From: Nitrosopumilaceae archaeon
GTDB lineage: Archaea > Thermoproteota > Nitrososphaeria > Nitrososphaerales > Nitrosopumilaceae
Reading direction: 5' to 3'
NCBI GenBank assembly: GCA_965207375.1
Contig: CBDBMG010000003.1
Span: 64,001-128,000 of the forward strand
DNA: 64,000 nt
Shown piece by piece: positions 12,553 to 63,510 of this stretch (position 1 is the first letter of the stretch; every line of letters begins with the position of its first letter). The notes below the pieces were generated by a model, which worked only from the letters and a program-made list of their open reading frames with translations, was not told where the DNA came from and made no database searches. Both the position numbers and the translations under genes were made by a program.

Positions 12553-14988
12553 TAGGGCTGAAACGAAGTATTCGAATATTCCGAAGCTTCGAAGCTGAAA
12601 CGACCTTCGAAGTTTTTGCAAGGATTCGAAGGTTCGCAAATGTAGTTATACGCATGCGCAAATAGTTTAATTAATAGTGCTGTTAAATGGCGTCGCAAAG
12701 TGAATCGAGCGGTGGTAGTAACAGAAAAGTATCGGATGTGTGGAGTTACTTTACTAAAGTAGCAGATATGAAGAAGGCTATGTGTACTATTTGTCGTAAA
12801 GAATTAGCCTATTTAGGCAGGACGACGAATCTTCGCGACCATCTTACCTCGCAGCACGCGCTTTGTTATAATGCTGATAAGAAGAATGAAAGCAAGAAGA
12901 AGACGCTCGATAGATTTATTATAAGACCTGCTAAGTGTAGTGACGCTCGTATGAAGAATATAACAGACAGGGTAACTCAGATGATAGTTCGAGACTTGCG
13001 TCCCATCCGAGTTGTTGAATGCGAGGGTTTTCGTAATCTAATCAATTACTTGGAGCCTGGATATATCGTGCCAAGCAGAAAGCAATTCACTGCTGATATT
13101 AACCTGAAGCATGCAAAATGCAAGGAAGTGCTGAAACAACGCCTGAAGAATGAAGCGCAGTTTATAGCATTAACAACAGATATATGGACAAGCTTGGCAA
13201 CAGAAAGCTATCTCTCGGTAACTGCGCATTATATTGATAGTAACTGGGAGTTGCAGGCATTTGTACTAGAAACCTTATCCTTCCCAGAGAGGCATACAGG
13301 AGTCAATATTGCTGATAAGCTAAAAGGGTTAGCAGAAAGGTGGGAAATTATGGATAGTGTTATGGTGGTCAGCCATGATCAGGCCTCTAACATGAAAGCA
13401 GCCATGGATATTTTACTTGAAGAGTGTAACTGGAAAAGCCTCAACTGTGCTGCCCATTGCCTTCAGCTGTGTATATTGGCAGGCTTCAGTATCAGTACAA
13501 TTGACAGATTATTATCAGCTGCCAAAAAGATTGTAACACACTTTCATCACAGCACAGTGGTATCAGAAGCCCTAAAACAAAAACAAGCACAGATGGGCAT
13601 GTCTTGTAAAAAATTGATCACAAGTTGTGCCACTCGATGGAATTCCACTTATGAAATGTTGGATCGGTTGTTGAAACTCCGATGGCCCATAACTGCCGTA
13701 TTGTCAGATAGTGAAGTCACAAAAGTAAGTGATAGATATTTGGATTTAAAACCAGAGCAATGGAAATTAGTCGAGGACTTGGTAACTATCCTGGAACTTT
13801 TCAGTGTTGCAACAACATTTTTTAGTTACGAAGAGAATGTTTCTATGTCAGCTGTGTTCCCAATTTTCTATGGAATACTCGACTACAGAGCTCTCAGAAT
13901 CAATAATAATCAAACAATTTAAAGAAACTGTCCCATCAAACATCATAGAAAGATTTGAACTGAGAACATTACATAATGCATATCCAATGTTGCTGACGGC
14001 TATTCTTGACCCTCGTTTTAAAAATCTTACCTTATCAAGGTACACAGACAGTGAACAACGAGAACTGAAACTATCTATTGTTGAACTGATGGAAATGTAT
14101 AGAGAATTTGAAGAAAATGAGTCAGATGTGCGAATTGTGGATACTTCTACTGAATCTGTTGTTAAACGTTCAAGAAAACTCAGTGCACTAGATAAACTTC
14201 TTGGTGAGGAGGTGATGATATCAGAACCATCCCTAACTGAATTAGATAAATATCTGGCAGAACCCCCTTCACTTCGACGAGAGGACCCACTGAAACGGTG
14301 GAAAGAAAATGCTGCTCGCTTCAAAGTAGTATCATATGTAGCTAGACGACTGCTTTGCATGCCAGCTACAACAACTCCCTCTGAGAGGGTTTTCTCCACT
14401 GCTGGGCTGACAGTTACTAAGTTAAGAAGCTGTCTGAAGCCCAATGATGCACTAATATTTTTGAACAAAAATATGGGTAAACTAAACTTAGCTAGCTAGC
14501 TACTAATGTACAATAAATTTGTACTTTTGTATTAAATTCTTACCACACTATAGCTAGATATTACAAATAGTAAGAATTACAATATGATATTGTTCTCTTA
14601 TTGCAGCAGCTTGTACTTCTTTCTTCATCCTGCACGATCGACGGTGATGTGCCACGCCCACTTTTAAACTGACTTGATACCATAGTAAAAGTCTCAAAAC
14701 GCCACAGTTAATGCATGGAAAACACCAATTTAGGCTTTAGTTAGCATTCTCAGCTATGCATGATTGCTGTATGGACAGTTGGACATGCCCATTTTTCGAT
14801 CGATCGAGCGCATAACCTCTGAACTGTCACCAAACACTTATAAATTTATCAAATAGAAAGATGAAAAACTTGAGCAGCACATGCATAGCTAAAATACAAA
14901 AAAACCTTTAAATCCGAAGCTTCGAACCTTCAGACCATTTCCTTAACGAAGGTTCGAAGGTCAAATTTCAACCTTCGTTCCAGCCCTA
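12553..14988 (+). mobile_element. hAT (Ac/ZBED1-like) DNA transposon inserted in Gypsy gag
   Basis: TIRs TAGGGCTGAAACGAAG / CTTCGTTCCAGCCCTA; perfect 8-bp TSD CTACTCAC (12545-12552, 14989-14996); subterminal ttcgaa repeats. Confidence 0.97.
12687..14499 (+). pseudogene. hAT transposase (BED zinc finger, DDE core, dimerization domain), frameshift near 13880
   Basis: VWSYF..CTIC..NLRDHL (BED), ALTTDIWTS, CAAHCLQL, TRWNSTYEML and PATTTPSERVFSTAG, split across ORFs 12687-13922 and 13804-14499. Confidence 0.93.
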
Positions 14989-22276: not shown

Positions 22277-25200
22277 ATGGCTGTGAGAGAGGCAGTTCGT
22301 TCCGTTGTCAAGAAAATCATTAACACTAGTACTCCGCTTGCTCCTAAGCCAATTGGACCTTACAAGTGAAAAAGCTAATAATACGATACTGTTGTATCAT
22401 AGGGTAGCCTATATATATCAGTACTAATATCATGCTGTCCATTGTAGCCAAGCCATTGCTGTGAGAGAAACATTGTGCCTATCTGATCAAATTGGATTAG
22501 ATCCTAATGTAAGGACACGGGGCTAGTCATATCTACTCAGTAACTGTATAACAGGCAAACTGGTCTTGATTAGCGGAGTCATTGTTTATTTCTCTGCCCG
22601 GCGCTACATCAGCACTCAAACACTAGCTACTGCCTCAACTTTAATTTTAAATAAGAAAAATAATCCCACATCAAAATTGCAAAAATTACTGATGATAAAC
22701 TGACTGACAAGTACTGACATAGTCATTTGGTCACTGATGTCATCGGTTTAGTCTGCTGCTTGATCAGAGTCAGGATCACTTAGCCACTAAAATTGAACCT
22801 TCCGTGAATTGTGTATTCATGACCTAATATGTGTTGTCAGTGTTCTTGCTGGCTGCTGGGCAGATTATGCACTTTTGAACCGCAGGTGCATGTCATGGTA
22901 CCTTTGTCTGTGAAGTTGGTAGCTATATGCATGCTTGCATGGTTGCTTTGTTTGTGTGCGTGTATCTTCCAATGGATTATTTTGTATGCCGTATACGGTA
23001 CAGCAAAATGTTATTATCACAATTGTCTGAAAGATTGTGCATAGGTAGGTGATGCCGGCTTTAATTTGCAGTGTAGCCTAGCTGTAGCTATAACAATTGC
23101 ATCGGCATGCTACTGGATTGCCACCTTATAGCTATGATGTTCTTTAATTCCTTCAGCCATGTAATAGTAGCTGGAGCAGCTGGACAGTGGTACTACAATA
23201 CATTAGTTGACTGCATTCCTCTGAATGTTTAATTCATCAGTAGCTGCTAATATGACAAAGCTGTTAGATTATAGTGTGATCCAAATTTTGAATGCTTCAG
23301 ACTTACCAATCAGATTGCTAAATGTTGTGATGTACGTACAAGCTACAATGATGTTGTGTCCAAATACATGTCATGTGCAATGTAGCCATAGTAACCACAC
23401 AGCTACTTGGATTTGTGTGGTTGACTCATTCTTATTTTGGATGATATATATACCTGCTAGTATATCCATACATGTAGCTAGCTATATAGCTAATGTAACT
23501 ATATTCTTAATACGTATATAACTTTATAGCTAGCTATAATGTTCTCAACATATAGACCATGGAATTGATCAGTGGAGATGTTTGTGATCAGACCAAACAG
23601 GTATATATATATAGCTACTACCTTATTTGGCTGTTTCTTTAAATTGTAGCTAATTTTGGATTATACAACATAGAGACAAATAGCTAGCTAGCTATAGTGT
23701 TTTATTGCATGGGCTTAGCTACTAGCGTATATAGCTATCTAACATGTTAGCTTAACTGTATCAGTCTATGATAATGTGCACATTAGCTATAGGATGATGT
23801 CATTTAACCATTAATTTACAGTCTTTATTATGCACTCTTATAGGCTCTTAATAATATGAAGAATGTATTGGAAGTTGCTAATTCATCTATGGACAATGGT
23901 TAGCAGCCATTACAGTAGAAATATAATAGCTACTACACGTGTAGAGGGAAACTTCGGTGGGAGTAAGATTTGGCGAATTTATCTACTTTTCTGAGCAAAA
24001 GATTTTACCATGAAAATTTATGTTATCAATAGCTATAATGACTTGTGCAAGAGGGGGACTAGCTCCGTAGCTGGTCATGCAAGGTTGTTGCTAGGCTGTG
24101 CCATACCAAATGCCAAGTTAAGGTGCCAAAGTCAACACTCATCAGATCCCACAAAAGGTGTAGACAGCAGGACGGTATAGTCATGGCAGAGCTCAAAATA
24201 ATGGTCTGTTACAGGTCATTTTCCAGCCCACTTTAGTGTATCAGATCCAATTTGGTAGGACAAATTTACTGGGGAAGCCAATGATAGTCTATAATCATGT
24301 TCCTATTTTGAATGAATGACTGACCAATATTATTAGCAATATCAGCAATGCTACTTGCAGGACCAATATTATTAGCAGTATTACTTGTAGCAACAGCAAT
24401 GCTATGGGTGTTTGAATGGTAATCATAAACTATAGCCAATTCAAAATAGCTCTATAGCATAACCATAATGCTACGTATAACTGCATACTGTAGCTATAGA
24501 GGGAAACGTTGATGAATATGGTGAATGTTGCTAATAATATTAGTCCTGCAAGTAGCATCGTTGTTGCTACAAGTAACACTGCTAATAATATTGCTATATA
24601 TATAGAAGATATTCATAAGGCATGGCATCATGCAACTACATTGAAAATTGAGCAGATATAATAATGTACAAGTGTAATGTAAAGTTCTGCCAAACTATAT
24701 AGTTTTACTATAACCAACTGATGATACCTTAGTATGAATAATACTGTAAGAGCAATTCCTTTATAGTCCCACTGTATGCATATGCCTTCCATTAGTTAAG
24801 CTGCTGCAGCAGAAGAATTAATGATCTGACATCAGTGGAAAAGAGACGGTGGGGATTTCCGCCTGACACCCTATCTTTCCAATATGATTATTAATTCAAA
24901 TCCTCTCTATACTGTAGCTATAGCGGGGTATTTTGACGAGCTAATTTGACATGATGAACAGCTATAGCATGCAGTTGGGGTTTAAAGGTCAAAGCTGTAG
25001 CTAATTCAATAACTGTGAAGGGGGCGGGGCACTGGGCACTTGCCCCCACAAAATTTGCTCTGTCCCCACAACTTTGAGTAAGTTCAGCCGGCCCTGCATC
25101 AATGTGGCTACTAAATGATTCCTTTAAAATAGCAATTGGTCAATCAGTTTTTATCTTGTTCTTGTTTGTTTCCTACAGTTGTGAAGGTGACAATATTTTT

Positions 25201-27059: not shown

Positions 27060-27927
27060 CTATTCCTGCTGATATACGCTACTACGTAAAGGTTTTGTTT
27101 TTGACACAAAGATCTGATAATTCACTGGAGGCTCTTCGGACAACGCCCTGTCTTTTGGAGGCTGGCTGCTGCGTCTTCTCGCTTCCTCTGCCTGTAGCAA
27201 CATTATTTAGTATATAAACTAGTCACAAGGAGCCATTAGTACGTACATGAACTAGTCACAAGGAGCCATACATTACGTACATGAACTAGTCACAAGGAGC
27301 CATACATTAGTACATGAACTAGTCACAAGGAGCCATACATTAGTATATGAACTAGTCACAAGGAGTTATACATTAGTACATGAACTAGTCACAAGGAGTC
27401 ATACATTAGTATATGAACTAGTCACAAGGAGTTATACATTACGTACATGAACTAGTCACAAGGAGTTATACATTAGTACATGAACTAGTCACAAGGAGTC
27501 ATACATTAGTATATGAACTAGTCACAAGGAGTTATACATTACGTACATGAACTAGTCACAAGGAGTTATACATTAGTACATGAACTAGTCACAAGGAGTT
27601 ACACATTAGTACATGAACTAGTCACAAGGAGCCATACATTAGTATATGAACTAGTCACAAGGAGTTACACATTAGTACATGAACTAGTCACAAGGAGTTA
27701 CACATTAGTACATGAACTAGTCACAAGGAGTTGCACATTAGTACATGAACTAGTCACAAGGAGTTACACATTAGTACATGAACTAGTCACAAGGAGCCAT
27801 ACATTAGTACATGAACTAGTCACAAGGAGCTATACATTAGCGTCGTTCATTGAAGTAGCGTCTGATAATATAGTAACTTCAGTAGCCATTCGTCAGGCAC
27901 GGATTCCGTTGAAGATGTACAACCCAT
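27060..27927 (-). pseudogene. Small two-exon gene of unknown function with an MGCTSS N-terminus (27927-27836, 27191-27060); needs a 1-nt frameshift
   Basis: ATG GGT TGT ACA TCT TCA...; exon 1 ends ...SMNDAN|GT; exon 2 after TACAG encodes AEEARRRSSQPPKDRALSEEPPVNYQIFVSKTKPLRSSVYQQE*. No family recognised. Confidence 0.4.
27208..27840. repeat. 33-bp minisatellite, ~19 copies
   Basis: Unit tacatgaactagtcacaaggag(tt/cc)a(c/t)acattag. Confidence 0.95.
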
Positions 27928-30624: not shown

Positions 30625-30884
30625 CCATTCTAAAATGATCAGTGTAGTAACTACCATATTTAGCCATGTATGTATGTGTATATGCTGCTTAAGTTACTGT
30701 GTGTATGCACAGGCAGAAATTTGAGGCATAAATTATGAGTACAACAGTTAATAACGCAAATGTTGAAGTCTGTTTACCCATATGTGATCCCAAAGTACAT
30801 GCACTACACACGGCAGTCTTACGTACATTAAATATACTAGCAATATAGTTGTAAATAGTTAGCTATTTAGAATAAATACATATA

Positions 30885-31094
30885 TGTGATCAGGCCTGAG
30901 AAAACAGAGGTCTTACCTACACATAAAATTCAGTCTACTTGATTGAAAACTCTTTCCTAACGGTATCTTAACACAAATTTTATCATATATGCAGAAATTC
31001 CTAAGGAATTTAATAACTTAAGATTTTAAATAGTGCACACAGAAAGAGATAGATACCATAGTGTGATAGGACTGGTTTTCTCAGGCCCGGTCAC
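30885..31094. mobile_element. MITE, TGTGAC family
   Basis: tgtgatcaggcctgagaaaac / gttttctcaggcccggtcaca. Confidence 0.75.
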
Positions 31095-31211
31095 ATAATA
31101 AATTATACTCAAATATACAATTGATGGTACGTAGCAATATAGTTGTACATAGTTATTTACAATATATACATATATACAGTCATATATAATATTGATGGTA
31201 GCAATATAGTT

Positions 31212-31608
31212 ATTACGTAAGCGCCTGTAACATTTTGTGCACCTGCTAAAAGATTATTAAATGCTTAGCATGTATAAAAGTGAACAAGCTAGAATGATAA
31301 AAAATTAAAAATTTAAAAAAATAAGTAGGGATTGAATTTTGGATTCAATAGTGCTACAAAAAGTAAGGAAACAAGGAATAAGATTTTGGGACGAGAGAAC
31401 ATTCTGGCATGAGATAATTTATAAAAGTTTAATCCCTACTTTTGGCTCACTTTATAGGTTTGCCAAAAGTAGGGATTAAATTATCTCATGCCAGAATGTT
31501 CTCTCCTCCCAAAATCTTACTCCTTGTTTCCTTACTTTTTATAGCACTATTGAATCCAAAATTCAATCCCTACTTACTTTTTAAATTTTTAATTTTTTAT
31601 CATTCTAG
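31212..31608 (+). repeat. Second copy of the leader-plus-palindrome unit (cf. 7528-7935)
   Basis: Starts attacgtaagcgcctgtaac; palindrome 31289-31608 ending CTAG|T. Confidence 0.9.
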
Positions 31609-32817
31609 TTAATAACAAGGATATCATACGAGTGAATGGGGAATAACTTGTTTATCTCTCACAAAGTTTGTTTGCTTGTACTAGATAGTTTGTCACAAAA
31701 GGTGTTTGTGTGTACAAACTTTGTTGTTAGCTGTAAATAGGTGTTAAAACTACAACATTAAAGGTTTCTGGGTAGGGAGATACTATAGTTATCACACTAT
31801 GGTAACTATAATATCTCCCTGGCGGCTTCTTTGATCTGCCCACGCACTGGGAGATAATGAACTATAAATTGATGCAATAGCTAGCTATCTGATGAAATGT
31901 AAAATTACTCTGCAGAGCTACCTACGCATTTCATGATGATCTGCACTTTCTAAGGGTACAGTTTTTACAATTGGGCTAACATGTTTAAATAAAATATTCG
32001 ACTAGCTGGCTACGTATTTATCTAGTTACACACCTTTTGCTTGAATGGCCAAGTGAGTAAGTCATCATAATCTGATTTCATTATCACCAGGAACAAAGAT
32101 ACTTGCCCTGACCATCGCCATCAAGGTACAGTCTGAGACACATCCGGTAGCCATGTAAAGAAGTAAAAAATGGTGGGCTATAAAGACTCAAAATTTTGCC
32201 AGTCTTAGCCTCTTCAATTCTTTTCTCTACCTCATTCACCTTCCATATAAGAATACTATTAATACTCCGTACAGCAAGGAGGTCTACTTTCAGCCCCACT
32301 TCATTCACCATACCATTGACCTGAGTAATTGCATTAGTGCACTGGTTCATTTCCGTTTGCAATGTGCCAACAGTTTCAGTGTTCTCTTCAACCTTCAGAT
32401 TAATAGCATCAATTTGACGAGCTAATACATCAAAACTGTTTTGCAGTGAGCGAATGTTGCCTTCGAAATGAGCTACGTCTGAAGAGTGTACACCATATGG
32501 TTTAGCTGCTGGTCCACTACCAATTCTGCTAACATTCTCAGTTAAATTATCGATTTGCTCACTGTGCCGGGAGGTTACTTCAGTAATTTGTTGTTTCAAG
32601 ATTACCATACTGTTTTCATACTGTCTAATAAGCTCCTTCTGCTGTTCATACATTTCACGCATTGATTTAAGTTCACTGTGAACATCTATTAACTCCTTTT
32701 GAAAATGTGTACTATCTTGTTGATTTTTATGCAAAATGTCCTTTACATGAAGTACTGAGTGTTGCAATAGTTGACCAGGTTTAACCTGTACACAAATGCG
32801 TAATATTATGTAAAAAG

Positions 32818-32939
<122 letters not shown>

Positions 32940-33275
32940 GTACATGCATACATATAGTACGTATGTACCACCTGTAGCTACTGCCACACATTCAGCTAAG
33001 TTATATAACATTTGTAAATCTTTTAAATTAAACATTAACAGCTTCTACAAATAATACAACTATTACTTAGGTGAAATTGCTAATTCTAAAACTAGCGGCC
33101 ATAACCATATAAATGCTTTCTAACAGAGCAATCAGTGAGCAAAAACCGACCATGTTAACACCTAAACTGAAATCCATTTTATTGGACAAAATCGTAGTTA
33201 CACTCAAGAACTACCTATGTACTGTATGTAGCTACAGTGTCTCTACTGTACATATACATAGTTATGTATACAGAG

Positions 33276-38798: not shown

Positions 38799-39659
38799 TA
38801 TAACTTACGCGGAGTACCGAGTTATTACTTAGTGGGAGTTAATAGATTCCATTCTCATAGCCATGATGGCATATGAGCAAATCAAGCAAGTTATTACAGT
38901 ACATAATAACGTTATACTGAACATATTGTAGTGAATACTAGTGATCTCATCATGGACCATCAGAACTCAGTGTTTGTTACATAACTTGAGAAGTTATATC
39001 TGTTCTCTATTTGTACTTGCTTCTTTGAAAATCAGAAGAGATGTCACTTGTCTCAGAGAGATTATCAAAAACAGTTAGTTACTGATTTAAATACACGGAA
39101 TATCCTATATACATTTCCTTAGATTTGTCTTTGTTTTCTGCATCATAAAAGTCCCAAATATAAACACTGCATTTCATATTGTTTTCAAGTACTCTGCAAT
39201 AGATCATCAAGGAGAATGAGTTGTTTCTAAAAGTATTCATTTTTCTCTGACTAGCTTGATAAATAAAATAAATCTAAGATGCTGATGGATTAGGCTGTTA
39301 AATACTTGTAACACCCAGTTAAGATTGTCAAATGTCATTACCATACCTACTAAACTGACATTGGGATGTGTGCATGTAAACCATTATCAAGTGACAGTCT
39401 GTAAATCTCCAATAATATAGTTGATTAGAAACTGTTGTTTTTCATAGACAATTCAGCACTTACGTAGCTAAATCTTTAATCCATCAAAAATCGTAAGTAT
39501 TTAGCTACACGTCAAACCTGTGTTACAAAAATTTCATCAAGTATTGAATACCAATGACTACGTACAATTGCTTGCTTGTATGTAGCTAGTACCCTTAAAA
39601 CTTGTGATTTAACCAATTAAAACTCAAGTGGTCATTGACACACATGACAAGATCTTCTA

Positions 39660-43325: not shown

Positions 43326-44577
43326 TACTGTATGTTTTTGGAAAATCCATCCTGCACATTATTTATTTTCCGTTTTGTGCCATGGAACAGTTTTTGCTAA
43401 TTGAGTATACAGTATCAAAATGCAAAAGTTTGTCCCTCTGAACCTTAGAGTCCAGGGGCATTGAACACATTATGGGTGCATACATACATGTTAGTTAGCT
43501 GGTCAGTTAATTGGTTTGTTTGTGTTGGTGTAACTTGGTTAGTATGATCAGTGGCAAGTTAGTTGTTTAATTATTTAGTTAGCTACTTAGTCATTAGTGT
43601 TAACATGCAGTTAATTAAATGCATGTGACTAGCTATAGCTACTTAGTTAGTTATAGTACGTAGTTATGTTGTAGTTAGTGCAGTGGTGTAGGAAGCATTG
43701 ATGCAATGCATGGGTGCAGGCTTCGGTATCCATAAATTTTTCTGTACAGCTGAGTTAGTCTCAGCAACTGCTGCCTGCTGGAATGTGGGGAAAACTTGGC
43801 AATTTACTGCTGTGTCCATGCAAAGGCCTTAACTCTCATGCATCTTTGCTTTTTGTGCCCAGTGGTTATGTATAACCTTTGGTTTTGCGTATAGTTGTTG
43901 AAAAATTTCGTGTATATTGTTAAAGAATTTTCGTGGGTTAAGGGTATACCCACGAAAATTTTTTAGCCTTGAAAATTTCCCGAATTACGGTATTTCGGCA
44001 TCTCAACTAAGAATACTAGTGTGGATTATGGATTGGCTTATGTAGTAAAAGGCTATTTCGGGATCTCAACTAAGAGTATACGTATTAGTGTGCATGGATT
44101 ATGCTGGTGCCCTCATGCATTTTCAAGTGTCCACATGCATTAACAGCTATATATGTTAACGTCATGAACTCCACTGTATAAAGCCCCGTATATATAGCTA
44201 CGTACATTGGTAAAATATAGCTATAGCTATACAGTGATAGAGTGTCACTAACTTAGCTATATATGTGACTGTCTCTGCAAAAACCAGCCTAGTTCGCACT
44301 AAAATTTAAATCAGTCATTTTTTGGCCAAGCTTATAGCTATATCCAATAGCTAAAACACCATGCATGTCTCCTATGCTTATATAGCTATACCCAATAGCT
44401 AGCCAAACACCATGTCTCCTATGGCCAGACCTAAATGGTCTGCTTTTCTGAGGGGAGGATTTGAGGTCTTGTAAAAGCATGACCGACACATTGGCACCTG
44501 TGGAGCGCACCAATTGGGCGTTATCGGCCTGGAATTCTACCCTTGATCGGAATGATGTCCCTTCGGCCTGGTTGTAT

Positions 44578-45954: not shown

Positions 45955-47908
45955 AGCTATATTACGTGGCTGTGTGTTAAATACTTCACCAGTTACATGG
46001 TCTTGTAAAACAGCAACGGACGTTTCTTCTTGACAGTTGTAAAAATATTTCCATGGGTTTTCCAGTTTTCTCCGTGAATGTCACCTAGAGGAGGCCACAG
46101 CTGTACGAGTCTTGGCTTATTCAGCTTCAAATCTACATAAATCGATTCGCTGTAGCATAATGAATCCTTTAAACTTTAATTGAGCTTCATAGAGCAAACA
46201 TAGAGGTTTTTATGGGGCCTTTTGTAATTGTATGTCATCACGGCAATAACAGCGATTTAACTTGTTTTTGCATGTCGGCAGAAATTACCCCATAACTTCT
46301 AGATGCCAGCTCCTACAGAATTGAAACAAACACCAATACATTCTATATAAAACAGTGATTCTTTTAAGCTATAGTATAAGGCTTTGACTTAAGTACTTAG
46401 CTAATTGCAGGCTCTTAAAAATGATCTCGTTTTTGAAATGAAGAGAAAATGGCGAAATTTTGAAGGAGTTGGGATATCTCAGCAACGAAAAAGGTCTTTT
46501 AAAAATTCCCTTGTTTTAATTTCCCTTTGTATCAAATGTTTTCACTTGGTAGTGTTATTATAGACCTAGCCCTTCCCAATTTGCCACACATTAATTAATT
46601 AATTAATTATTTATGAGATTATTAGTATAGGTAATCACACACATTTGAGTGCAATTCGAGAATAATTGTACCAGTAACAGTCAAGTAATTGCACGAGGCG
46701 AAGCCGAGTGCAATTTGACTGTTACGTGTACAATTATTCTTGAATTGCACGAAAATGCGTGTGATTGCCTATTAATCGCATTGCACGACCTACGACGCCC
46801 ACTCTAACCTGAGGCACGCCGCTCTTTCCAATCTGAGGCACGGTCGCAAATCGTATTCCTTCCGCATCGCTTGTTTTAGCAGTTCCGCGTTCAGAATTGA
46901 CTTCTAAGACGTTAACATCGAGAAATTCTTCTACAAACTATGGAGTATTCATTGTGCCTGTAATCGTTACTTTGTTGCCATGTAAGTCGGTTACTATGAA
47001 TCCCCAGTGCTACGCAATTTCATTCGCTGTTCATTGCATCATTGTTTGTTGCACTTAAACGGCTTCCAGCAGAGTGAATTTTGGTTGGCTGTTTTACCGT
47101 GCAATTACTGAATATTACCTGTGCAATTACTGAATATTACTGTGCAATTAGAGAATAATTGCACGGCTACTAACGGCAAAATATATACAGGCTATGCGAT
47201 TATTATTGTAAACAAATAAACATTACCATTATACAATATAATAATCTCATAAATAATTAAATAATTAATTAATGTGTGGCAAACTGGGAAGGGCTAGGTC
47301 TATAATAACACTACCAAGTGAAAACATTTGATACAAAGGGAAATTAAAACAAGGGAATTTTTAAAAGACCTTTTCGTTGCTGAGATATCCCAACTCCTTC
47401 AAAATTTCGCCATTTTCTCTTCATTTCAAAACGAAATCATTTTTAAGAGCCTGCAATTAGCTAAGTACTTAAATCAAAGCCTTATAATATAGCTTAAAAG
47501 AATCGCTGTTTTATATAGAATGCAATGGTGTTTGTTTCAATTCTGTAGGAGCTGGCATCTAGAAGTTATGGGGTAATTTCTACTGACATGCAAAAACAAG
47601 TTAAATCGCTGTTATTGCCATGATGACATACAATAACAAATGGCCCCATAAAAACCTCTGTGTTTCCTCTATGAAGCTCAATTAAAGTTTAAAGGATTCA
47701 TTATGCTACAGCGAATCGATTTATGTAGACTTGAAGCTGAATAAGCCAAGACTCGTGTAGCTGTGTCCTCCTCTAGATGGCATTCACGAAGAAAACTGGG
47801 AAAGCCTCATGGAAATATTTACAACTGTCAAGAAGAAACGTCCGTTGTAGTTTTATAAGGCCATGTAACTGGCGAAGTATTTAACTTACAGCCACGTAAT
47901 ATAGCTTA
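45955..47908. repeat. Large inverted repeat (foldback): arms ~45955-46624 and ~47237-47908
   Basis: The arms align as reverse complements over ~670 bp with scattered mismatches; the right side continues as a diverged ~410-bp tandem subunit to ~48300. Confidence 0.9.
46627..47203. mobile_element. Non-autonomous element with a terminal palindrome centred on GAGGCGAAGCCGAG (Crypton-like, uncertain)
   Basis: Palindrome 46627-46773; an inverted related copy lies at 58815-58972 and a similar centre at 34740. Confidence 0.55.
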
Positions 47909-49460
47909 AAAGAATCGCTGTTCTATATGGAATAGATTGGTCTTTGTTTAAAATCTATAGAAGCTAGCATTCCGAAGTTATGGCCTGCCTTCTACTGATA
48001 TGCAAAATTTCTTTGATGCCATATTAAAATACAATTACAAAATAATGGCCATATAATTACCTCCCTGTTACTTGTATGAAATTCAAATAATGTTTAAAGG
48101 ATTTGTTATGCTACAGTGAATCGATTGATGTACGTATTAAGCTAAACAAACCGACATCACAGGAAGTGTGAGCCCGTCTTCACTGGCTTGTGAAAGGAAT
48201 TGCGTGTACGAGATAAGAAATTGTTTAACAAGAACTAAGAAAAACACACGTTGCGAAGAACTCGTGTGTCCTATGGCCTTGGAATGTGGCTTAAAAGATT
48301 CGCCTTGCTCTACTGAGTGAATTGACGTGTGTTTCAAACGTATCAGTGAATTTGTTTAAATAGTATGGAACCATTTCATTGGCATGCGTGCTGTTATAAA
48401 AGCACACGAAACAGCCGACTCAAAAATAGATGTTAAAGCTTTCCTACTTAAGCATATGGTTACAAAACAAAGCCTTTCATTATAAAACGAAAAGTACTTA
48501 CCTGTAAACACAGCCTAACTAGGCGTATTGATTCGTCTCCAAGTATAACGAATAAACGAAATTCCGTGTTACATGCGTTGCTAACACGCATACGTTGAGC
48601 AGAAAGAGATACAGCAATTTGTTCCCAGTAAATATTCCAGCCTTCCGAGTAATATATAACCTTCACTGTATCAGTCAATAGCTTGTTGGCCAGTGGGATA
48701 GTAAGATTTGATCCCAGGAGAATGTTTGGCTAGAGGTAACGATGACTACTCTATTAGAGAGTTTTCGTAAGTGAAGATCCATGATTGCTCCGCTTTTAGT
48801 TCCTGCCCTCAGCATTCTATAGATATGTCAGGTAACATGCATAGATAACACACTCTCCTTTAGAGATCTGATTATTTTCGAAAACAATTAGTTATAGGTT
48901 ACTATCCTAAGATCCATATACGTAGGTTACATCCTTCACTGGAAACTGGCTTATTAGTTATATTACTTAGTTATATTACTCAATAAAAGGGTACTATATC
49001 CTTACCTTGAATATTTGAAACAGAGGAAACGATATATCAAAAAATATCGTAGTTCAAATACATTTGTAATTGTAAAGCAGCTAGCTATTTATACCAACAG
49101 TTGATAATTGATGAAAACAATAAATTATAGCTATCAAAAATATTGTAGTTCGAATACATTAGTAATTGTAAAGTAGCTAGCTGGTTATACCCAATTGCAA
49201 TGTGTGATAATTGATGCTTTAATTGTACATCCCTTGATTTTATATACGTATGGTTATGTAGTCCGCAGGCTAGAAAAAACAATAATAAAAGAAATGATGA
49301 ATGTGATTTTTTTATTTTGATCACAAATCATTTTAAGTCCGTACCACTTACAACCTGGCTTTGAATATGGAAATGTACATTCGTCCCAGCACTAATAGAC
49401 AATGCAAAATGTCCCCCCTAATACAAAAGCATTCAGTAGAAATGTTTATCCACATCACTC

Positions 49461-52400
49461 ACCAGTTATTACGTATTGTGAATCACTGGAGAAAGCACAA
49501 TCCCAAACCCATTTCTTATTAGTGCCCTTCCTCAATGTATTCCGCTCGGTGAAATCAGCAGTTGACCATATTTTACATGAACCATCAGCCGAGGTGGTAG
49601 CCAACAAGCTGTAAAGAAGAGACATACCAAAATGATATCCTGACATCTGATGGTCAATGACCCATAGGTATGAGTTGCACCTAGTACTGGGCAAGAACCG
49701 GGTAGCACACCATAACCACCCTGCACCATGAAACTGATTGTGAGGTATTTTCATATTGATGTTATCTAGAAATATGGCCAAGCTGTTGATGATACTGCCA
49801 TTTCAGTATCACGATTGATACTCTGTATAGAAATAACACTATTTGCAAGAATTAGTGTGTTTTAGTGTTTTTATAACAACACATCCATCCTTTTGTATTT
49901 CCTAAGGTCCGGTGGCTGACTGGCTACTGCCCCCTTAGCCCCCCTAAATCTGCCACTGCTATATTGTCATTTTGATTTTTGATGCGCAGGTGCAAGGCCC
50001 TATTCAACAGCTATTACGATAGTTAAGATCACAACATTGATATTTATAATATCACTCAAATGGTAGTATTGGTTGTAATATGGACACCTTGGGACCAACC
50101 ATCAAGGTGTCTTGATTTTTCAAGTTAGCTTATGTACTAAAGGCTACTTTCAAGAAGTTATTACACATTCTAATTATATGTGTATATGCCTTTATAAGTA
50201 AAGAAAATTCCATCATTTGTAAAATAATTATTCATAATTTAATAGTCTAGATCTTCTGACCATTGTAACCAAACTATTTAATTTATCACAACATTACCTT
50301 TGGCTCCATTGATATTATACTTCCTTATATGGTCATAGAACTTATTCATTATTAGTAATGACTGACTATAAATACACAGGGCGCCATAAAATATACCACT
50401 GACCATCCCATTGTTATTGAATCAATGTAATGGCTTATAAAGATAGTAGGTTATATAATACATGGCTTCAATGTGAGTACGGTAAGATAATCTATGTATT
50501 AAGTATGTGGTGCCTTTTTAAAAACACACACACACACGACATGCGTGGAACACACACACGACACATGCATGGAACACACACACAACACATGCATGGAACA
50601 CACACAAAGAGTAAAACTGTCTACACCTGTTCGTGCTGTATACTACCAAATAAACATGATTACTGGGTCCCTATTATTCATTGGTATACTTGTCACCACA
50701 AGTATGGCTTCACAACAGTGCTCTTTTATATTTATTGTGGGTTAGAATGGCTTCAGTTTATGCATGTGTATGCAGAGTGGTGTGATGGGTTAATTTGAGG
50801 ACAAAATGTTTGTGTGCTGATTTTGCAGTTTATTCCAATCTTCTAATACACACAATGATACAGTACCTCTTGACCACCACAGCCAATCCATGAAAAACCT
50901 TTTGTGGCATACACAATGTACAGAATTTGGCTTTAGTGTTGGTGATTGTAAGGGGGCCTGGACCCCTGTTGAAAAGTAAGTTGCAATGAAACATTATGGT
51001 ATACATTGGTGCTGTTAAATTTAACATTTCTAGCAGTCTAGCATGGCTTTCTAGGACATCTTATTTAGAGGAGCAAACACAAATTTGTAATTTCTAAGTG
51101 AAATAGTTCCTTGGTCCCCTATATCAGGGACCTCATTCTAACTAAAGCCCCCCCTGTAGAATTGCCACTGATTGTACCACAAGTATTTAGTATTTATTAA
51201 TCACAATTTATGAAATTCTCAAATCTCACCTGGAGTCTGGGCTGAAGAGGCATTTCAGGGCATATTTTGGGTGAGCAATGATCCTGGTACGAGGGTTGAG
51301 CAATATCGGTGATTCCCCCACGCCGCCAGACAAACTCCACACAAAACACGTCCCCTACAAAAATACCATCATGATTGTAAGAATACAAGAAAAACCTATT
51401 TGATTTCTGGGGTACACTATTATTTGTGTGTGTACATGCATGTACAGTTGGGAGTTAAAGTGCCGTACTTTCTTGAGGTATTAATACAAAAACTGCACAC
51501 CCACCTTACTATTGACAGCAGCAAGGTACGCAGCATCGGGGTCAATGCTGACACTATGTATGGCCACATCAACTTCTGGTATCTATGGTAACAACAGCCC
51601 ATCATCATAGATGAATTATAAATTTCCACATAAAGACGTACATAAGTACATAGTCCAATGCTCTATAAAAACTATTATGACATTTTTACAAGTTAAAGAT
51701 CGTGTACATCTTTGTTAAAAACAGGTCAGGATTAATTTGATCAGATGTGTCTCATTATATCTGGACAAAGCTCAGCTACAAAGCATTTATTTACAATGTC
51801 AAATAAGACAAATATACCATCAGCGAACATACATACCACTTTACTGCTGGTGTCTCCGACAAGGTCCCAGAGGTGCAGCGCACCGGTTTGATCCCCGACA
51901 ACCAAAGCTGCCTGATTGGGATGAAGGCAGACACAGTTGATGGGAGCATTAGCCTGGAACAATTTCTGGCACTGCATATTACGTGACCTACAGAAATAAA
52001 AGCAGTAAGATCAAGCCTTTATCATTTGCTTTCTTTAGCACCCAGATTAATATCCTCATGCCCAGATAGACTCCATACATGTCAGGACTCAGGATAAATT
52101 AATAATATGTTCAAAATTGTGTTTCTTGTATTCTTACGATCATATTATTTCATGACGGTATTTTTATAGGGGATGTGTTTTGTGTGGAGTCATGAGGATG
52201 CTAAAGAAATCACCAATTCACTGTGTGAATAAAAGCAAGAGTTCATTGGGGCGAGCCTGAGCGAGCCCCACACTAGCGAGTCGCCCCCTCAAGATTGGTG
52301 TTATCGACCATGCACAAAAAATTACGACAAAAATTGGGTAACTTACGCATGCGACGAGAATTCAACGGCATAGATTACAGCGCGTCCTTGTGTAATCGTC

Positions 52401-54664
52401 CATGCCAAGATAAGTGAACGGTGTAGATTACAGGGTTTGGTGTTATCGTTCATGCCACGATAAGTGAACGGCGTAGATTACAGTCCTTCCATATTTGGTT
52501 TGGTGTTATCGTTCATGCCACGATAAGTGAACGGCGTAGATTACAGTGTTTCCATATATGGTTTGGTGTTATCGTCCATGCCACGATAAGTGAACGGTGT
52601 AGATTACAGGGTTTGGTGTTATCGTCCATGCCACGATAAGTGACGGCATAGATTACAGTGTTTCCATATATGGTTTGGTGTTATCGTCCATGCCACGATA
52701 AGTGAACGGTGTAGATTACAGGGTTTGGTGTTATCGTCCATGCCACGATAAGTGAACGGCGGAGATTACAGTTCTTCCATATATAGTTTGGTGTTATCGT
52801 TCATGCCACGATAAGTGAACGGCATAGATTACAGGGTTTGGTGTTATCGTTCATGCCACGATAAGTGAACGGCGTAGATTACAGTGCTTCCATTATGGTT
52901 CGTCCATGCCACGTTTTGTACGTGTGCGTTGATTAGAAAAAATGAAACGTGAAGAGAGATTGCAGCGACGAATAGACCTTTACAGACAACGAAGGGACAA
53001 GGAGAGGTTCATGCATACGTCGCTACATGCAACTTATTGAATGATTAATTGAACAGTTAAAATTACGATCAGGCTCGCCCCTCGATGCTGTTAGCATCTG
53101 TCTAGTAATAAAAGAAGGGAGAGTCACATGTTAAACACCATAAATTATGCAGAGTTACTCTACTCAGACATTACCATGAAACAAAAATAATTCCGCACCT
53201 GGGTGGGCTCGAACCACCAACCTTTTGGTTAACAGCCAAACACGCTAACCAATTGCGCCACAGATGCAGATGGAAACGCAAGCCGTAAACCTCACCAATA
53301 GAAGGATGTTAAATTAAAATATAAGGCCAAACAAAGTTAAAAATGTTTCTGGTCCTCCTGCCTGGTTATTTTTGCTAACCAGTAAAATATTTTTTATTAA
53401 CCATACAAATAATTTTGTGGATACCTTTATGTAAAAAATACAAAATTAAGCAAATTTTATAATGGATGAAAGAAATATTGTGTATGATCAATAAAAGTAA
53501 CCAGTTTTAGTTTTAATATGCCTGGATCAGAAACACATACCGTATACGTGGTAATTTTCGAAGGTCTTATATTTCACGGAAGATAAGTCTGTAAGGATTT
53601 TCGTGGTTTAATTTTCGCTGATCAGTAAGTCGAATACAGTGTTTCCTTAAGCTACTGCTTCTTTTCAAGGATTAAAATTTTGTGCTTGACAAGCTTACAG
53701 CGAAATCTGCGAAATTTACGTCCCTCAAAAATTACCGCGTATACGGTATTTAACTTTGCAGCCTAACCAGTGTAAGCTTTTGACCATGTGTGATTCTTGC
53801 TATTGCAGAATTTCACACACAATACTCCACACTTCTTTTTTAAAGGTATAATCTTGTTTCAGCATACCGCAAATCCCAAATCCTGGCAGTCCCATCCTCT
53901 CCGCCAGTGTACATCCACTTGCCGTTCTCACAGAACCCGACGGCTGTGACGTTCTTTGATATCCCGTTATAGTCCATCACCTGGAGGGATATACAGCAGT
54001 ATGCTACCATCACTACTACCATATACGGTAAAACATTGGGGGAAACTTTCAGTTTTCGTGATTTTTTGCTCAACTGCAAATGTTTTACATCAAATAGTTT
54101 ACTAGCAATAGTCAAAAGAAGCTGCTACCATGACAGTTTTCCTGTGAGCATTTATTATCTATTCTAACGGCGAAAGTTCTCCCTGAATGTTTTGCCATAT
54201 ATGGTATACTGATTGTTACTCACTGGGTTTGTATCCGTTGAGCAGACATGATACATTTTAACATGTTGGTAACCTATGATACGTCAAACAGTGCATATAT
54301 AACAAGTTGTAAATTTAGCAATCAAGAATGCTTTGTCAGCATACACATGAACAAATATACACATATAAATGTACAACACACATGCAGATGCACTCGCCAC
54401 ACACACATACGCACGCACGCACACACCTGCTACAGCAACATATTTCTTGTCAGGTGTAATGGCAAGCCCATTCACTTGCTGTAAGACAAATAAAACATCA
54501 TAGATAATAGGTGCAGTCCTCATAAGTGTACAGTATAATTTGCTACTTAAATGACTCACGGAGTCCGCGTGCTGAGCGGAACGGTAGCACACGCCATCGT
54601 GCGGATGCCAGAACTTGATCGTGTGGTCGTAGCCGCCTGTTACAAAAATAATATCTCCAGACAT
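49461..54664 (-). CDS. MLST8: Target of rapamycin complex subunit LST8 (WD40); 8 exons seen, last exon not found
   Basis: [25 protein letters not shown] | [11 protein letters not shown] | GYQHVKMY | [29 protein letters not shown] | [20 protein letters not shown] | [26 protein letters not shown] | [17 protein letters not shown] | [31 protein letters not shown]. Confidence 0.93.
52246..53105 (+). mobile_element. Non-autonomous Helitron/Helentron-like element with subterminal inverted repeats and an internal hairpin array
   Basis: A|TTGGGGCGAGCCTGA ... TCAGGCTCGCCCC, 3' hairpin GATGCT-gtt-AGCATC, end CTAG|T, no TSD; internal tandem array 52364-52912. Confidence 0.75.
53194..53267 (-). tRNA. tRNA-Asn (GTT), in an MLST8 intron
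   Basis: GCATCTGTGGCGCAATTGGTTAGCGTGTTTGGCT-GTT-AACCAAAAGGTTGGTGGTTCGAGCCCACCCAGGTGCG; cloverleaf closes; T5 terminator just downstream. Confidence 0.9.
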
Positions 54665-54769
54665 GTACAAAATTATTAGAATATGTTTCTATCCAATGCC
54701 CACTGAAACAACGTGAACTTGGTAATTGTCTGTAAAAGATTTATTTATGTGTATGAGGCGTGGATCATT

Positions 54770-57700: not shown

Positions 57701-60068
57701 CACTCGTTTTGTAGAGTTGTCTACCGGTGGATGTAATGCCTGGATCACATGATCCGACTAACCACTTGTTGCCACAGCATCCACTTCATTGTTGTATGTT
57801 CCCTCAGGCATCACGTTACTCAATGTTACAATGTGTCACCAATCCCTACCAGGCTAGGGTGGGGGGAGTTTTGTAAGTTACACGAACTCATGCAACTGAG
57901 TGAGGGGATATTGATAAAACAATATTTTCTTACAGGTTATTAGGAACATCAGGTCAAAATATTGATGATGCAATGAGATTCTCATCCTATACTGATCCAA
58001 TGGCGGTATTGGAGCATACGTTGTTATGGAAACATTTGGCTCCCACTACACCTGATACTCTTAGTTGTTTTCCATACACAACTGATGACCCCTTCATCCT
58101 TGAGGACCACCCACAGATCTATTTTGCTGCTAATCAAGCATCACAGCAACATAAGATTATTAAAGGTATTCATTGCAGCTATAGCTAGAGTCTTGTATTA
58201 AGTTAAGTAACTCAGTATCCAGCCACTGCTGGATAGGTTGAGGTGATAGGGTCACAGAATGTAGCTATATATTACATAGCAATACCATGTGGACTTGGAT
58301 TGTTACCTGACATGATATGTAAAGTGACTGCACTGTAGCTAGCTAGCTATATGTTATTTCTTCAAAGGAAATCAATAAAATTTAATAGCCATTCCATGGC
58401 ATTTAAGGTATTGCCATGTGTTTATTTTCTTATCGCATAGCTAGCTTGTATATATTGTGCCATTAGTAGCAGTGCAATTATTCTCAAATTGGTAGCCTAG
58501 GGGATAGCAATATTCAGTAATTGCATGCTAAGATAGCGAATCAAAATTCACAATGCAGGAAGCCATTTAAATGCAACAAACAATGATGTGATAAACAGCA
58601 AGCGTAGCACTGGAGATTCATAGTAACTGACTTACATGACAACAAAGTAATGAATACAGGTGTAACGAATACTCCATAGTATGTAGAAGAATTTCTCGAT
58701 GATAACTTCTTAGAATGGAATTCTGAATGCAGAACTGCTAAAAACAATGTGGAAGGAACAAGATTTGTGACCATGCCTCAGATTGAAATGAGCAGCGGGC
58801 GTCGTAGTTCGTGCTATGCGATTAGTAGGCAATCACACATTTTCGTGCAATTCGAGAATAATTGTACACGTAACAGTCAAATTGCACTCCCCTTTCCCTT
58901 GTGCAATTACGTACTTGACTGTTACTGGTACAATTATTCTCAAATTGCACTCAACTGTGTGTGAAATTAGCTACATACTGGGAGCTAAGCAATTTAGTAA
59001 CCCTCAGGCCCTTAACTGCACTAGGGATGCTACATCCTCAGGCATTTGGGCTACTAGCATCTAACTGTCATATAGTTTATGTAGTATAGCTACAAAGGAT
59101 AGCTAACCATTTTGTATTTCAGATACACATTAAGTAAATAGCTACCGTATAGCTAGCGTAATTTTTGACAGGGGAAAATATTAACAGATTTTAAGCTAAC
59201 ATTAGCAATACATCAAAATTTCCCTTTCAGTGGTTTTGAGTAGTATAGTGCTAATACAGGTGGCCTAAGATGCTGTACGTCAATATTTTCCGTATTAAAT
59301 TTCTCAATGAAATACATCCATCAATATTTTCCCTGTTAAAAATTTGCGCTAGCTATATGGTAGGAACACGTATAGCTAGTTGTCTAGCTGGTAATGCCTG
59401 AGGCTTTAGGGCACTAAGTAAACACACGTAGTGATCTAGCTAGTGATTTATTAAACCTGCAAATTCACTACATTCAAATTGTAGTCTAAGCGTTAGTAAT
59501 GCAATTAGCTAGCTACAGAAACTAGCTATATAGCTAGCTTACCTAATTTTTGGAAGGGCTATCTTTTATAACAAGATATCTGTGTTGGTTTATATTCCTA
59601 AGCACATGGGCATAATACTGAGCATAACAGGTGAAATTTATGAGCACTACAACATAACATAGTAGGTAAAGATAAAAGCATAATAGGCTGTCCATACCAT
59701 AATAGCCGTTCCATGACATTGAAGGTGTTGCCATGTTTTTTTGCCATACAAAATAGCTATAGATAATAGCTATGTGTCTTCATTGTTAGTCACAATGCAC
59801 TCTATAGCTACCTGTTTCTACAGATGATGATGGTAGAAGAACTTGTCTACTGACAGTTCCTAACTTTGATCAAACACACAGTTGTGTTCTTGTCAACCTG
59901 AAGACCCTAAAGTGCAGTGAGATACAATTCCGTACATCACTAGTCTCATCATCACCAAGTGTGCCACACCCCATGGATACAGGAGACACTCCTATGGCTG
60001 CAGAGTCAGAAGAAGACATCAACTACATGGAGCTCTATCAAGATGACAATGATGATGATATGGATTAA
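54770..60068 (+). CDS. POLD2: DNA polymerase delta subunit 2, 8 exons (~54770-54959, 55043-55164, 56016-56284, 56488-56686, 57293-57372, 57715-57872, 57936-58165, 59824-60068)
   Basis: [115 protein letters not shown]. No lesion seen. Confidence 0.95.
55585..55979. mobile_element. AcademH-like MITE in POLD2 intron 2
   Basis: TAGTCTC...GAGACTA long TIRs; 9-bp TSD GTATGGTAC / ATATGGTAC (8/9). Confidence 0.8.
57463..57536 (-). tRNA. tRNA-Arg (TCT), intronless, antisense in a POLD2 intron
   Basis: GTCCCTGTGGCACAATGGATTAGCGCATTGGACT-TCT-AATTCAAAGGTTGTGGGTTCGAGTCCCACCAGGGATG; T6 terminator; one D-stem mismatch. Confidence 0.88.
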
Positions 60069-60791: not shown

Positions 60792-61270
60792 CGAAGACAT
60801 CAACTACATGGAGCTCTATCAAGATGACAATGATGATGATATGGATTAATTATATTGTCGGTAGCTAGCTAGCTAGCTATATAGCTAGTTATAATGTGTG
60901 TGTGTACAAAAAAGTTTATATACTAACTATCACAATTTTACAGATTTGCATTCTATTCACAATGTGAAATGAAATTCAAATCAGCTATATACATGACTTC
61001 AGTCTGGTGAGCATTGAGCCAATGACCTCACACTAACATCCATGCAACTTTTACTTGGTGTGTAGATGTGTTACATCATTTATTCTGTGCTCTCATATTG
61101 AAGTTGAAATTATCCTAATTTGGCAAGGGAAATGTTAATTATATAGTTTACCAATAGCTATACAGCTGTCTTAGATTCTCTGATATATGAGGGGGTCTCG
61201 AGACCACAAAGACCCCCTTGATCTGCCCATGTGTAAATAAATGTGACTGCACAGTTGTGGAGTGCAAGCT
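60792..61270 (+). repeat. Tandem duplicate of the POLD2 C-terminal coding end and 3' region (cf. 60013-60700)
   Basis: Identical gaagacatcaactacatggagctc...atggattaatt at 60013 and 60792, followed by diverged collinear sequence. Confidence 0.9.
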
Positions 61271-62850: not shown

Positions 62851-63510
62851 GATGATAACTTCGTAACTTTCAGAACGTCGTAATGTTAGGTAATTACGTA
62901 AAGAAGTGGGGGAATTTCACAGAATGTTTCGTATTTTGGTGCATTGTGGTTCACGATGACCACTGATATTATAATAATCTACACTCAGGTCATTAACCTA
63001 TCCATTAAAGTCTTCATTGCCCATTTGTTTGCTTGATGATCAACAATTAATTAGTTGCTTTAGTTGAGTTGAATGTTTAGGTGTGTGCAAAAACAGCTAT
63101 AGCTAGCTAGCTAGCTAATAGAGCAATATCATAATTAGTCATTTTAGATGCATACATAGCTATAATGGCTACAACAAAACAATTGTGTTTGTACTATCTT
63201 TTCCAGTAGGTAGTTACTTCATAAACTAAATAAAAATTAACAAAAATTCAAAGAAATTCTGGTAGAATCAGTCTCGAATAAATTTGCTGTATATAAATTT
63301 GAACTTGTAGCTACATACAATGTCTAGATTTCTAATCTATTGCTTGTGGTGGGAGTCACAAGTGAAGACAAATGATTATCTGTATGACTGTCTAATTGAT
63401 GTGAAAAATACAGTTAAACTAGCTAGCTACGACGTTCTGAAACTTTGATTAGAATGTCATGAAAGTTAAGGTTAGGTGGGGCAATTCCAAACGTGGGGAA
63501 ATTCCATATT

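Follow-up and report, generated by a model that had tools for sequence, protein, structure and literature searches.

Insertion of four bases at TA dinucleotides in presumed animal-host DNA filed with an archaeal genome, with transposon excision scars as a tentative explanation

The stretch of DNA analysed here (the window) comprises 64,000 nucleotides, positions 64,001 to 128,000 of contig CBDBMG010000003.1 in the assembly GCA_965207375.1, filed under a Nitrosopumilaceae archaeon, and its subject is a pair of palindromic words, TAGCTA and TACGTA, which appear in repeat copies as four-base insertions at the dinucleotide TA. The genes recognised in the window include one with a POP1-type POPLD domain and one with a TRAF/MATH domain, together with transposon genes, namely a hAT transposase (zf-BED and hAT dimerisation domain) and the pol gene of a long terminal repeat (LTR) retrotransposon (RVT_1, RNase H and rve). 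The TRAF/MATH-like open frame (32084-32971, minus strand) extends into a long (CA)n tract (32822-32936) read as THTHTH, and as listed it is in part a microsatellite artefact.

The assembly comprises four contigs totalling 4.3 Mb, here called C1 to C4, the window being C4:64001-128000. Filed as a single prokaryote genome, it is a mixture, in which C1 is archaeal-looking and C2-C4 are animal-host DNA. Contig C1 (2.16 Mb) behaves like prokaryotic DNA. Contigs C2-C4 (2.14 Mb) are repeat-rich and CpG-depleted, with 37% G+C and a CpG observed/expected ratio of 0.50, and they encode animal-type genes and transposons; because of these genes and this composition, they are read as host DNA binned with its symbiont. 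The host is probably a sponge, judging in part from the 'Poribacteria' label on another record with the same host repeats. Host-like AT-rich stretches with a shared host MITE (miniature inverted-repeat transposable element) are also found in four records labelled as bacterial metagenome-assembled genomes (Poribacteria, Anaplasmataceae, Acidobacteriota and Binatia), while a protein-based scan and a MITE-end pattern scan of metagenome contigs returned no matches. All results below refer to a host DNA sample of 2.14 Mb with ad hoc transposon annotation. Two long collinear alignments, C4:1-54049 against C3:198507-255794 (99.2-99.8% identity) and C4:135242-181332 against C4:862667-929942 (95-98.8% identity), involve contig ends that resemble either alternative haplotypes or segmental duplications of very recent date, inverted in part.

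Within the window, the insertions are seen by comparing repeat copies. The copy ATAGTTAGCTATTTA (30855..30869, plus strand) carries TAGCTA at 30860-30865, and its sister ATAGTTATTTA (31149..31159, plus) lacks the four bases; likewise, GATGGTACGTAGCAAT (31123..31138, plus) carries TACGTA at 31128-31133, and its sister GATGGTAGCAAT (31194..31205, plus) does not contain the extra bases. Because each of these two local pairs has only two to three short local copies, they cannot be polarised by themselves. A further repeat copy (58901..58920, plus) has TACGTA at 58908-58913, with the four bases missing from five paralogous alignments, and a paralogous copy at 46679..46694 (minus) shows plain TA at the matching position. 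The motif is also stacked, as TA(GCTA)3 at 14489..14502 and at 23681..23694, the latter within a 360-base stretch holding 13 copies of TAGCTA, and as TA(GCTA)4 at 60862..60879 and 63100..63117. Mixed stacks occur at 39461..39470, where TACGTAGCTA places both insertion types side by side, and at 44195..44204 (TAGCTACGTA). The repeat pairs and stacks quoted in the original prediction were all recovered where it had placed them, and the alignments of the pairs give clean four-base gaps opposite TA. The pair involving the local-repeat unit at 27234..27249 (plus; TACGTA at 27240-27245) is real but ambiguous: the four bases are missing from three sister alignments, and the TACGTA at 27240 is equally explicable as a tandem duplication of GTAC.

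Both words are strongly over-represented. The window has 150 copies of TAGCTA where 24.70 +/- 4.99 are expected, and 47 of TACGTA where 12.65 +/- 3.46 are expected; none of 100 dinucleotide-preserving shuffles reached either count. Under a first-order Markov background, TAGCTA (5297 against 840 expected, 6.3x) and TACGTA (2362 against 394, 6.0x) rank second and fourth among the 4096 hexamers of C2-C4, where the other top-ranked words near them are (CA)n words. The excess is not explained by amplified repeats, since it persists in the 1.24 Mb of single-copy DNA (without a paralog of at least 80% identity), in which TACGTA ranks first (1449 against 196) and TAGCTA second (3105 against 488); the 4,554 hexamers found there correspond, by a rough count, to about 7.6% of TA dinucleotides. 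Non-palindromic controls in the same DNA are flat (TAGGTA 0.95x, TACCTA 1.03x), TACTA and TAGTA stand at 0.96x, and TACATA and TATGTA are about twofold enriched in C2-C4. Among longer symmetric words of the form TA-N1N2-N2'N1'-TA, TATATATA and TATCGATA alone are enriched, the values for TACCGGTA (1.7x) and TAGGCCTA (0.6x) not being counted as enrichment; the 8-mer TATCGATA occurs 95 times in C2-C4 against 23.5 expected (4x). The archaeal contig C1 has TAGCTA at 0.63x and TACGTA at 1.6x. Eight host-like 20-kb stretches (36-39% G+C) from the four other assemblies, which share the host MITE and of which none is allelic to C2-C4, all show the excess, with 12-76 TAGCTA against 5-9 expected and 5-56 TACGTA against 2-4. 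A literature search, its coverage ending short of subscription journals, found no earlier description of an excess of TAGCTA/TACGTA, nor of palindromic four-base insertions at TA as a genome-wide class.

The indel spectrum ties this excess to a mutational process. The whole assembly was aligned against itself and polarity was taken from paralogs by majority rule, an indel counting as private where three or more paralogous alignments were available and 80% or more of them disagreed with the carrying copy. Private insertions of one to eight bases in C2-C4 number 126, 63, 20, 80, 8, 14, 3 and 4, so that 80 four-base insertions are seen where about 13 would be interpolated from the counts at three and five bases; the corresponding deletions (182, 28, 16, 15, 13, 5, 6 and 6) show no such peak. 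Of the 80, 59 have the form TA to TA-NN-TA. By product, they comprise TAGCTA (23), TACGTA (22), TATATA (5), TATGTA (4), TAATTA (3), TACATA (2) and others (21); three of the private TAGCTA events, all found in copies of a single tandem array at C4:500-505 kb, are possibly not independent of one another. None of 24 private four-base deletions (15 of them in C2-C4) removes GCTA or CGTA. At other lengths, 29 of the 63 two-base insertions turn TA (in 22 cases a lone TA) into TATA, and such an insertion amounts to two copies of the target-site duplication; none of the 20 three-base insertions of C2-C4 has the form TA to TA(G/C)TA and none of the eight five-base insertions the form TAC(N)GTA. Three of the four eight-base insertions create TATAATTATA. 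The eight foreign loci repeat the picture in small numbers, with 14, 5, 2, 6, 1 and 1 private insertions of one to six bases, no four-base deletions, and two TACGTA, one TAGCTA and one TATATA among the six four-base events. In C1, the private insertions of one to eight bases number 60, 6, 2, 0, 1, 1, 0 and 0, with four-base events at 0 of 70. The host DNA of C2-C4 thus undergoes an insertion-only process directed at TA dinucleotides, whose products are mainly TAGCTA or TACGTA, more rarely TATATA or TAATTA, and also TATA, and never the one-sided three-base form; several events can fall on one site and form a stack. The process is specific to host DNA, as the absence of four-base events and the TAGCTA deficit (0.63x) in C1 show. 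In these respects the original prediction, which had proposed a pervasive mutational process, an over-representation of both words, a four-base GCTA/CGTA peak and insertion rather than deletion, was borne out.

The same events bear on the dynamics of microsatellites and satellites, in which slippage of (TAGC)n and (TACG)n, together with amplification of motif-bearing repeats, would generate the words. In formal terms, seven of the 45 GC/CG events qualify as tandem duplications, and some arrays are motif-rich, but the other 38 begin at a lone TA without a prior TAGC or TACG unit, the matching deletions are absent and single-copy DNA is equally enriched. Single units dominate the runs: TA(GCTA)n occurs 3944, 517, 85, 12, 2 and 1 times for n of 1 to 6, and TA(CGTA)n 2062, 105 and 14 times for n of 1 to 3, with single cases beyond. 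In addition, there are 290 mixed runs, which speak against slippage as the whole account. Doublets of one type are nevertheless the commoner ones (GCTA+GCTA 517, CGTA+CGTA 105), the mixed ones numbering 224 where about 540 would be expected under independence, and this would allow for a measure of slippage or for repeated hits by the same agent. As the primary cause, slippage is largely refuted, and we consider it improbable.

Recent alignments carry the same signature, as had also been predicted. In paralog and haplotig alignments of at least 95% identity, indels of one to five bases number 130, 31, 15, 40 and 12, and the 40 four-base indels include 11 TACGTA, 5 TAGCTA, 3 TATATA, 2 TATGTA and 1 TACATA. 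Set against substitutions, one event was found per about 188 at 99% identity or more, eight per about 820 at 98-99% and ten per about 2071 at 96-98%, or 5.3, 9.8 and 4.8 events per 1000 substitutions, which places the process at roughly 0.5-1% of the substitution rate; clear heterogeneity, as a burst would leave, was not found across the 96-100% bins, and bins below 96% were left out because mismatches are counted per pair there and indels per site. The ratio of TACGTA to TAGCTA rises from 0.29 to 0.70 over the quartiles of local CpG observed/expected. Since this ratio tracks local CpG, and since TACATA and TATGTA are themselves about twofold enriched, the data fit equal birth rates of the two products followed by CpG decay of TACGTA.

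This decay also speaks to two explanations that dispense with a process in the host genome. An assembly or polishing artefact might be suspected where the evidence comes entirely from assemblies, possibly made through similar pipelines. An artefact would nevertheless have to spare the co-assembled C1, which has neither the four-base events nor the TAGCTA excess, to mimic the CpG-dependent ratio and the TACATA/TATGTA enrichment expected of old, decaying sites, and to arise again in the host-like stretches of four other records; moreover, six runs from two studies contain 69-84% of the words sampled from a 10-kb stretch. We therefore regard an artefact as very unlikely. Still less credible is that TAGCTA and TACGTA are functional protein-binding palindromes maintained or multiplied by selection. 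The motifs are palindromic and clustered in non-coding DNA, and none lies in the retrotransposon coding stretch at 14.9-18.8 kb, which counts in favour of that explanation, but selection could not create a specific four-base insertion spectrum in decaying repeat copies, and the sites themselves decay through CpG mutation.

The private insertions also include a second and less frequent class, X to X X' X, with five cases of CA to CATGCA and others that turn AGT into AGTACTAGT, CAA into CAATTGCAA and CTA into CTATAGCTA (examples at C2:72621, C4:509046, C4:509093, C4:606805, C2:26097, C2:175523 and C3:390222). This class looks like the pattern expected of hairpin opening or snap-back copying. The hairpin-mediated repair offered in the original prediction as an alternative origin of the four-base events fits only this separate minor class: the G/C centre of the GC/CG events is not templated by the flanks, and 19 of the 45 are compatible with X to X X' X, where about 16 would be by chance from flank base frequencies. 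Three mechanisms were rejected on their products. If G/C were tailed onto each end independently, TAGGTA, TACCTA or three-base products would be expected, and these are not seen; hairpin P-nucleotides of the hAT- or RAG-like kind, copied from TA flanks, would yield TATATA only; and fill-in of a topoisomerase II-type break would duplicate four existing bases, whereas the original site holds TA only and the G/C is new.

The host DNA is rich in elements flanked by TA. Among inverted-repeat pairs, TA is the commonest outer dinucleotide (621 of 3262), and the C..G-ended TA MITEs described as abundant in the original prediction are confirmed by 157 TA-flanked ends of the CCGTA type and 14 polymorphic insertions; in a further family, of the CGGTAC type, 21 of 21 ends lie on TA. 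One C..G-ended MITE in the window (53538..53748), with the ends CCGTATACGTGG and CCGCGTATACGG set between TA target-site duplications, is a candidate donor type for TACGTA scars. Of two haplotigs that are 99% identical, one carries an 892-bp element with the ends CGGTAC..GTACCG between two TA. Families with G..C ends also sit on TA, with 28 of 37 ends of the GGCC type and 8 of 9 ends of GCCTTAAT. At 59141..59160 (plus), a CCGTA-type MITE end reads CCGTATAGCTAGCG in its own terminal repeat where relatives have CCGTATAGCG, which looks, on the sequence, like a TA to TAGCTA event within a transposon end. Between the local repeat copies described above lies a MITE of about 210 bp of the GTGAC..GTCAC family (30883..31097), with 23-nt inverted ends and ATAT-type flanks. 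The members of this family, about 250 bp long, always have ATAT on both sides (also at C2:251479-253715, C3:133063, C4:321966 and C4:586517), apparently a 4-bp ATAT target duplication or else TA with T..A ends, and a 2.2-kb relative contains three tandem 804-bp units and has no transposase frame.

Candidate enzymes are encoded as well. A Tc1-like transposase frame of 408 aa (C4:795215-796441), with DDE_3 and HTH_Tnp_Tc3_2 domains, has its 5' part within a 162-nt inverted duplication, and a piggyBac-like frame of 530 aa with DDE_Tnp_1_7 (C4:569225-570817) looks interrupted and continues in another frame. DDE_3 matches were obtained in C4 and DDE_1 (pogo-like) matches in C2-C4, the latter including the frames C3:771749-772240, C3:765862-766356 and C3:380432-380869; the Transposase_1 profile had no match in the contigs, in a search whose control queries were equally silent. 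As the transposase frames are single-copy in the sample, the ends of their elements cannot be defined, and the terminal repeats of the Tc1-like and piggyBac-like genes were searched for without result. Exact 11-12-mer inverted-repeat scans returned mostly internal stems, a 9-bp minisatellite and palindromic stacks, and were used after manual sorting; element ends from BLAST alignment edges were abandoned, as (CA)n microsatellites swamped the edges. The 9-bp minisatellite, (GGTACTGTR)n, forms large inverted arrays at C2:16845-19110 and C3:392072-395236.

The four-base insertion sites and the transposon insertion sites have a common target context. At position -3, A is found in 0.56 of the four-base half-sites (50 of 90, p=5e-5) and in 0.45 of transposon ends (93 of 206, p=0.002), against 0.35 at all TA, and T at position -1 falls to 0.19 (p=0.05) and 0.14 (p=7e-6), respectively, against 0.27. 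The half-site context is similar to ANNTANNT, the target preference of Sleeping Beauty.

We tentatively favour the reading that the four-base events are excision scars of TA-targeting transposons, in which both TA copies and one base pair of each element end are kept, and put its probability at roughly 0.45. The donors would be cut-and-paste elements that insert at TA and duplicate it, such as Tc1/mariner/pogo-like elements and their MITEs. On excision, each flank would retain TA and exactly one element base pair, so that C..G-ended elements would leave TACGTA and G..C-ended elements TAGCTA, whereas excision with no element bases retained would leave TATA, the flanks being joined afterwards without loss of bases. 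The strict symmetry of the products, with both ends contributing or neither, suggests a fixed cleavage register in a symmetric transposase complex, which might cut each end one base pair inward or leave a 5' overhang that is filled in; in the latter variant the overhang would be 4 nt long and centred on TA, and ragged trimming of 3' overhangs is disfavoured. Later CpG mutation would turn TACGTA into TACATA or TATGTA. Scars would be permanent while the elements move on, and would thus accumulate, and a few hyperactive, often-hopping elements could leave many scars and few resident polymorphisms. Excision footprints had been the explanation preferred in the original prediction, and the MITEs, the transposases, the target context and the minor footprints of Sleeping Beauty (below) uphold it in part; its weak side is the lack of a mobile G..C-ended element, the lack of a filled/scar pair and the surplus of scars.

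Other evidence weighs against excision. One point is the supply of donors: TAGCTA, which requires G..C-ended elements, is as frequent as TACGTA (23 and 22 private events), yet C..G-ended families far outnumber G..C-ended ones, and the 148 polymorphic TA-flanked insertions between repeat copies include 14 C..G-ended and no G..C-ended cases. Moreover, GC and CG events have an identical flanking context, which one enzyme or two element classes would fit equally well. The scars are also too many, with 45 against 14 C..G element polymorphisms overall, and with 16 TACGTA/TAGCTA scars against about two presence/absence differences of TA-type elements in the alignments of at least 95% identity. The trios of full MITE, footprint and empty site that had been anticipated did not appear: among 221 TA-flanked inverted-repeat candidates, the 41 with comparable paralogous sites gave no TA-S-S'-TA, in a search whose power is low in 2.14 Mb, and the 32 large indels in high-identity alignments gave no filled/scar pair. 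The only near-trio seen, at C3:557536, has a non-canonical scar, TAAGTA. There, a CCGTATGG-type MITE occupies a TA, most paralogs have plain TA, and the copy at C3:499160-499274 carries the TAAGTA, a four-base insertion that is not self-complementary. The outcome is furthermore all-or-none (45 symmetric four-base events, 29 two-base events and no one-sided three-base event), which would not result if the two ends were processed independently, and the canonical five-base and one-sided three-base products of Tc1/mariner elements are missing among the private events. Clumping points the same way, TAGCTA having a mean of 24.8 and a variance of 1062 per 10 kb (variance-to-mean ratio about 43); the window itself has 13 TAGCTA within 23440-23800 and none within 49180-57189. 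To our knowledge, a scar with exactly one base pair from each end is not documented for any family of the Tc1/mariner superfamily. In rice, according to one study, about 2.6-2.8 Mariner insertions are found for each excision, and of 94 Mariner/Stowaway excisions only 8 are 'perfect', most having deletions or filler DNA (PMC4423477).

Several of these observations would sit more comfortably with a break-and-repair process directed at TA and independent of transposons, a real though minority possibility in our estimation. A symmetric (dimeric) nuclease would cut TA with a 2-base stagger; a domesticated transposase or a topoisomerase-like enzyme, among others, might play this part. Fill-in may then give TATA, while TAGCTA or TACGTA may arise from concerted repair in which both ends gain the same G or C, or in which a self-complementary dinucleotide, GC or CG, is added; a repaired site, which now holds TA twice, may be cut again, giving stacks and hot spots. 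Equal rates and identical contexts of GC and CG events are what such an agent would produce, as are an extremely uniform outcome with no three- or five-base products, scars far in excess of mobile TA elements with no mobile G..C element found, strong clustering and stacking (mixed stacks such as TAGCTACGTA and the 290 mixed runs included, with the variance-to-mean ratio of about 43), and a ratio to substitutions that is roughly steady over the 96-100% identity bins. No enzyme or repair pathway is known, however, to yield a strictly palindromic untemplated dinucleotide, and independent G/C additions predict TAGGTA/TACCTA or the three-base TAGTA/TACTA, which stand at 0.95-1.03x and at 0 of 20. 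The target context is, in addition, the same as that of resident transposon insertions, and TA-targeting transposition has the duplication of TA as its hallmark. Should break-and-repair be the cause, which is a serious possibility though less likely than not, the events would represent an undescribed germline signature of an early-branching animal, one that duplicates TA, adds GC or CG and recuts its own products, runs at roughly 0.5-1% of the substitution rate, and would have given rise to the roughly 4,550 hexamers of the single-copy DNA.

The significance of the insertions depends on which of these readings holds. If they are scars, small insertions in a genome can come chiefly from cut-and-paste elements, which would here make its two most over-represented hexamers; the scar of one base pair per end would be cleaner than, and unlike, that of any characterised Tc1/mariner element, it would provide a sequence-only read-out of past transposition, and an unusual cleavage register would be implied. 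If they are not, a basal animal has a mutational signature that is new and highly specific. On both readings, TAGCTA and TACGTA provide a simple marker by which the host part of a sponge metagenome bin can be told from the symbiont part; several such bins, including this one, carry host contigs.

Excision scars of DNA transposons as a genome-scale source of small sequence change have a parallel in rice Mariner/Stowaway elements, and the difference from that study (PMC4423477) is that the scars described here are uniform, without flank loss, and more numerous than element polymorphisms. Another likeness, by analogy, is that to Sleeping Beauty, a C..G-ended element for which TACGTA, TATA, TACATA and TATGTA are among six non-canonical minor footprints in a preprint (bioRxiv 10.1101/659086): in both cases TA would be duplicated and the donor site rejoined with both TA and bases of the C..G ends. 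Its canonical scars, however, are the five-base TACAGTA and TACTGTA, together with the one-sided TACTA and TAGTA, and no such private five- or three-base products are found here, where the product with one base pair per end dominates and the equally common TAGCTA has no explanation in C..G ends. Tc1 and Tc3 of Caenorhabditis elegans are said, in work by Plasterk from 1991 and van Luenen from 1994, to leave the footprints TACATA or TATGTA, again four-base scars at TA made of the target-site duplication and two element bases. Those two bases (CA or TG) come from one end, through a mismatched 2-nt overhang, whereas the self-complementary centre (GC or CG) seen here corresponds to one base pair per end or to cohesive CG/GC overhangs. 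Finally, the TA-bounded internal eliminated sequences of Paramecium are excised by a domesticated piggyBac transposase, whose TA-centred cuts leave 4-nt 5' overhangs containing TA and one excised base. That system belongs to a ciliate developmental programme and normally rejoins precisely to a single TA, and the piggyBac-like frame in C4 looks interrupted, but by analogy fill-in of both such ends followed by blunt joining would yield exactly TA-N-N'-TA.

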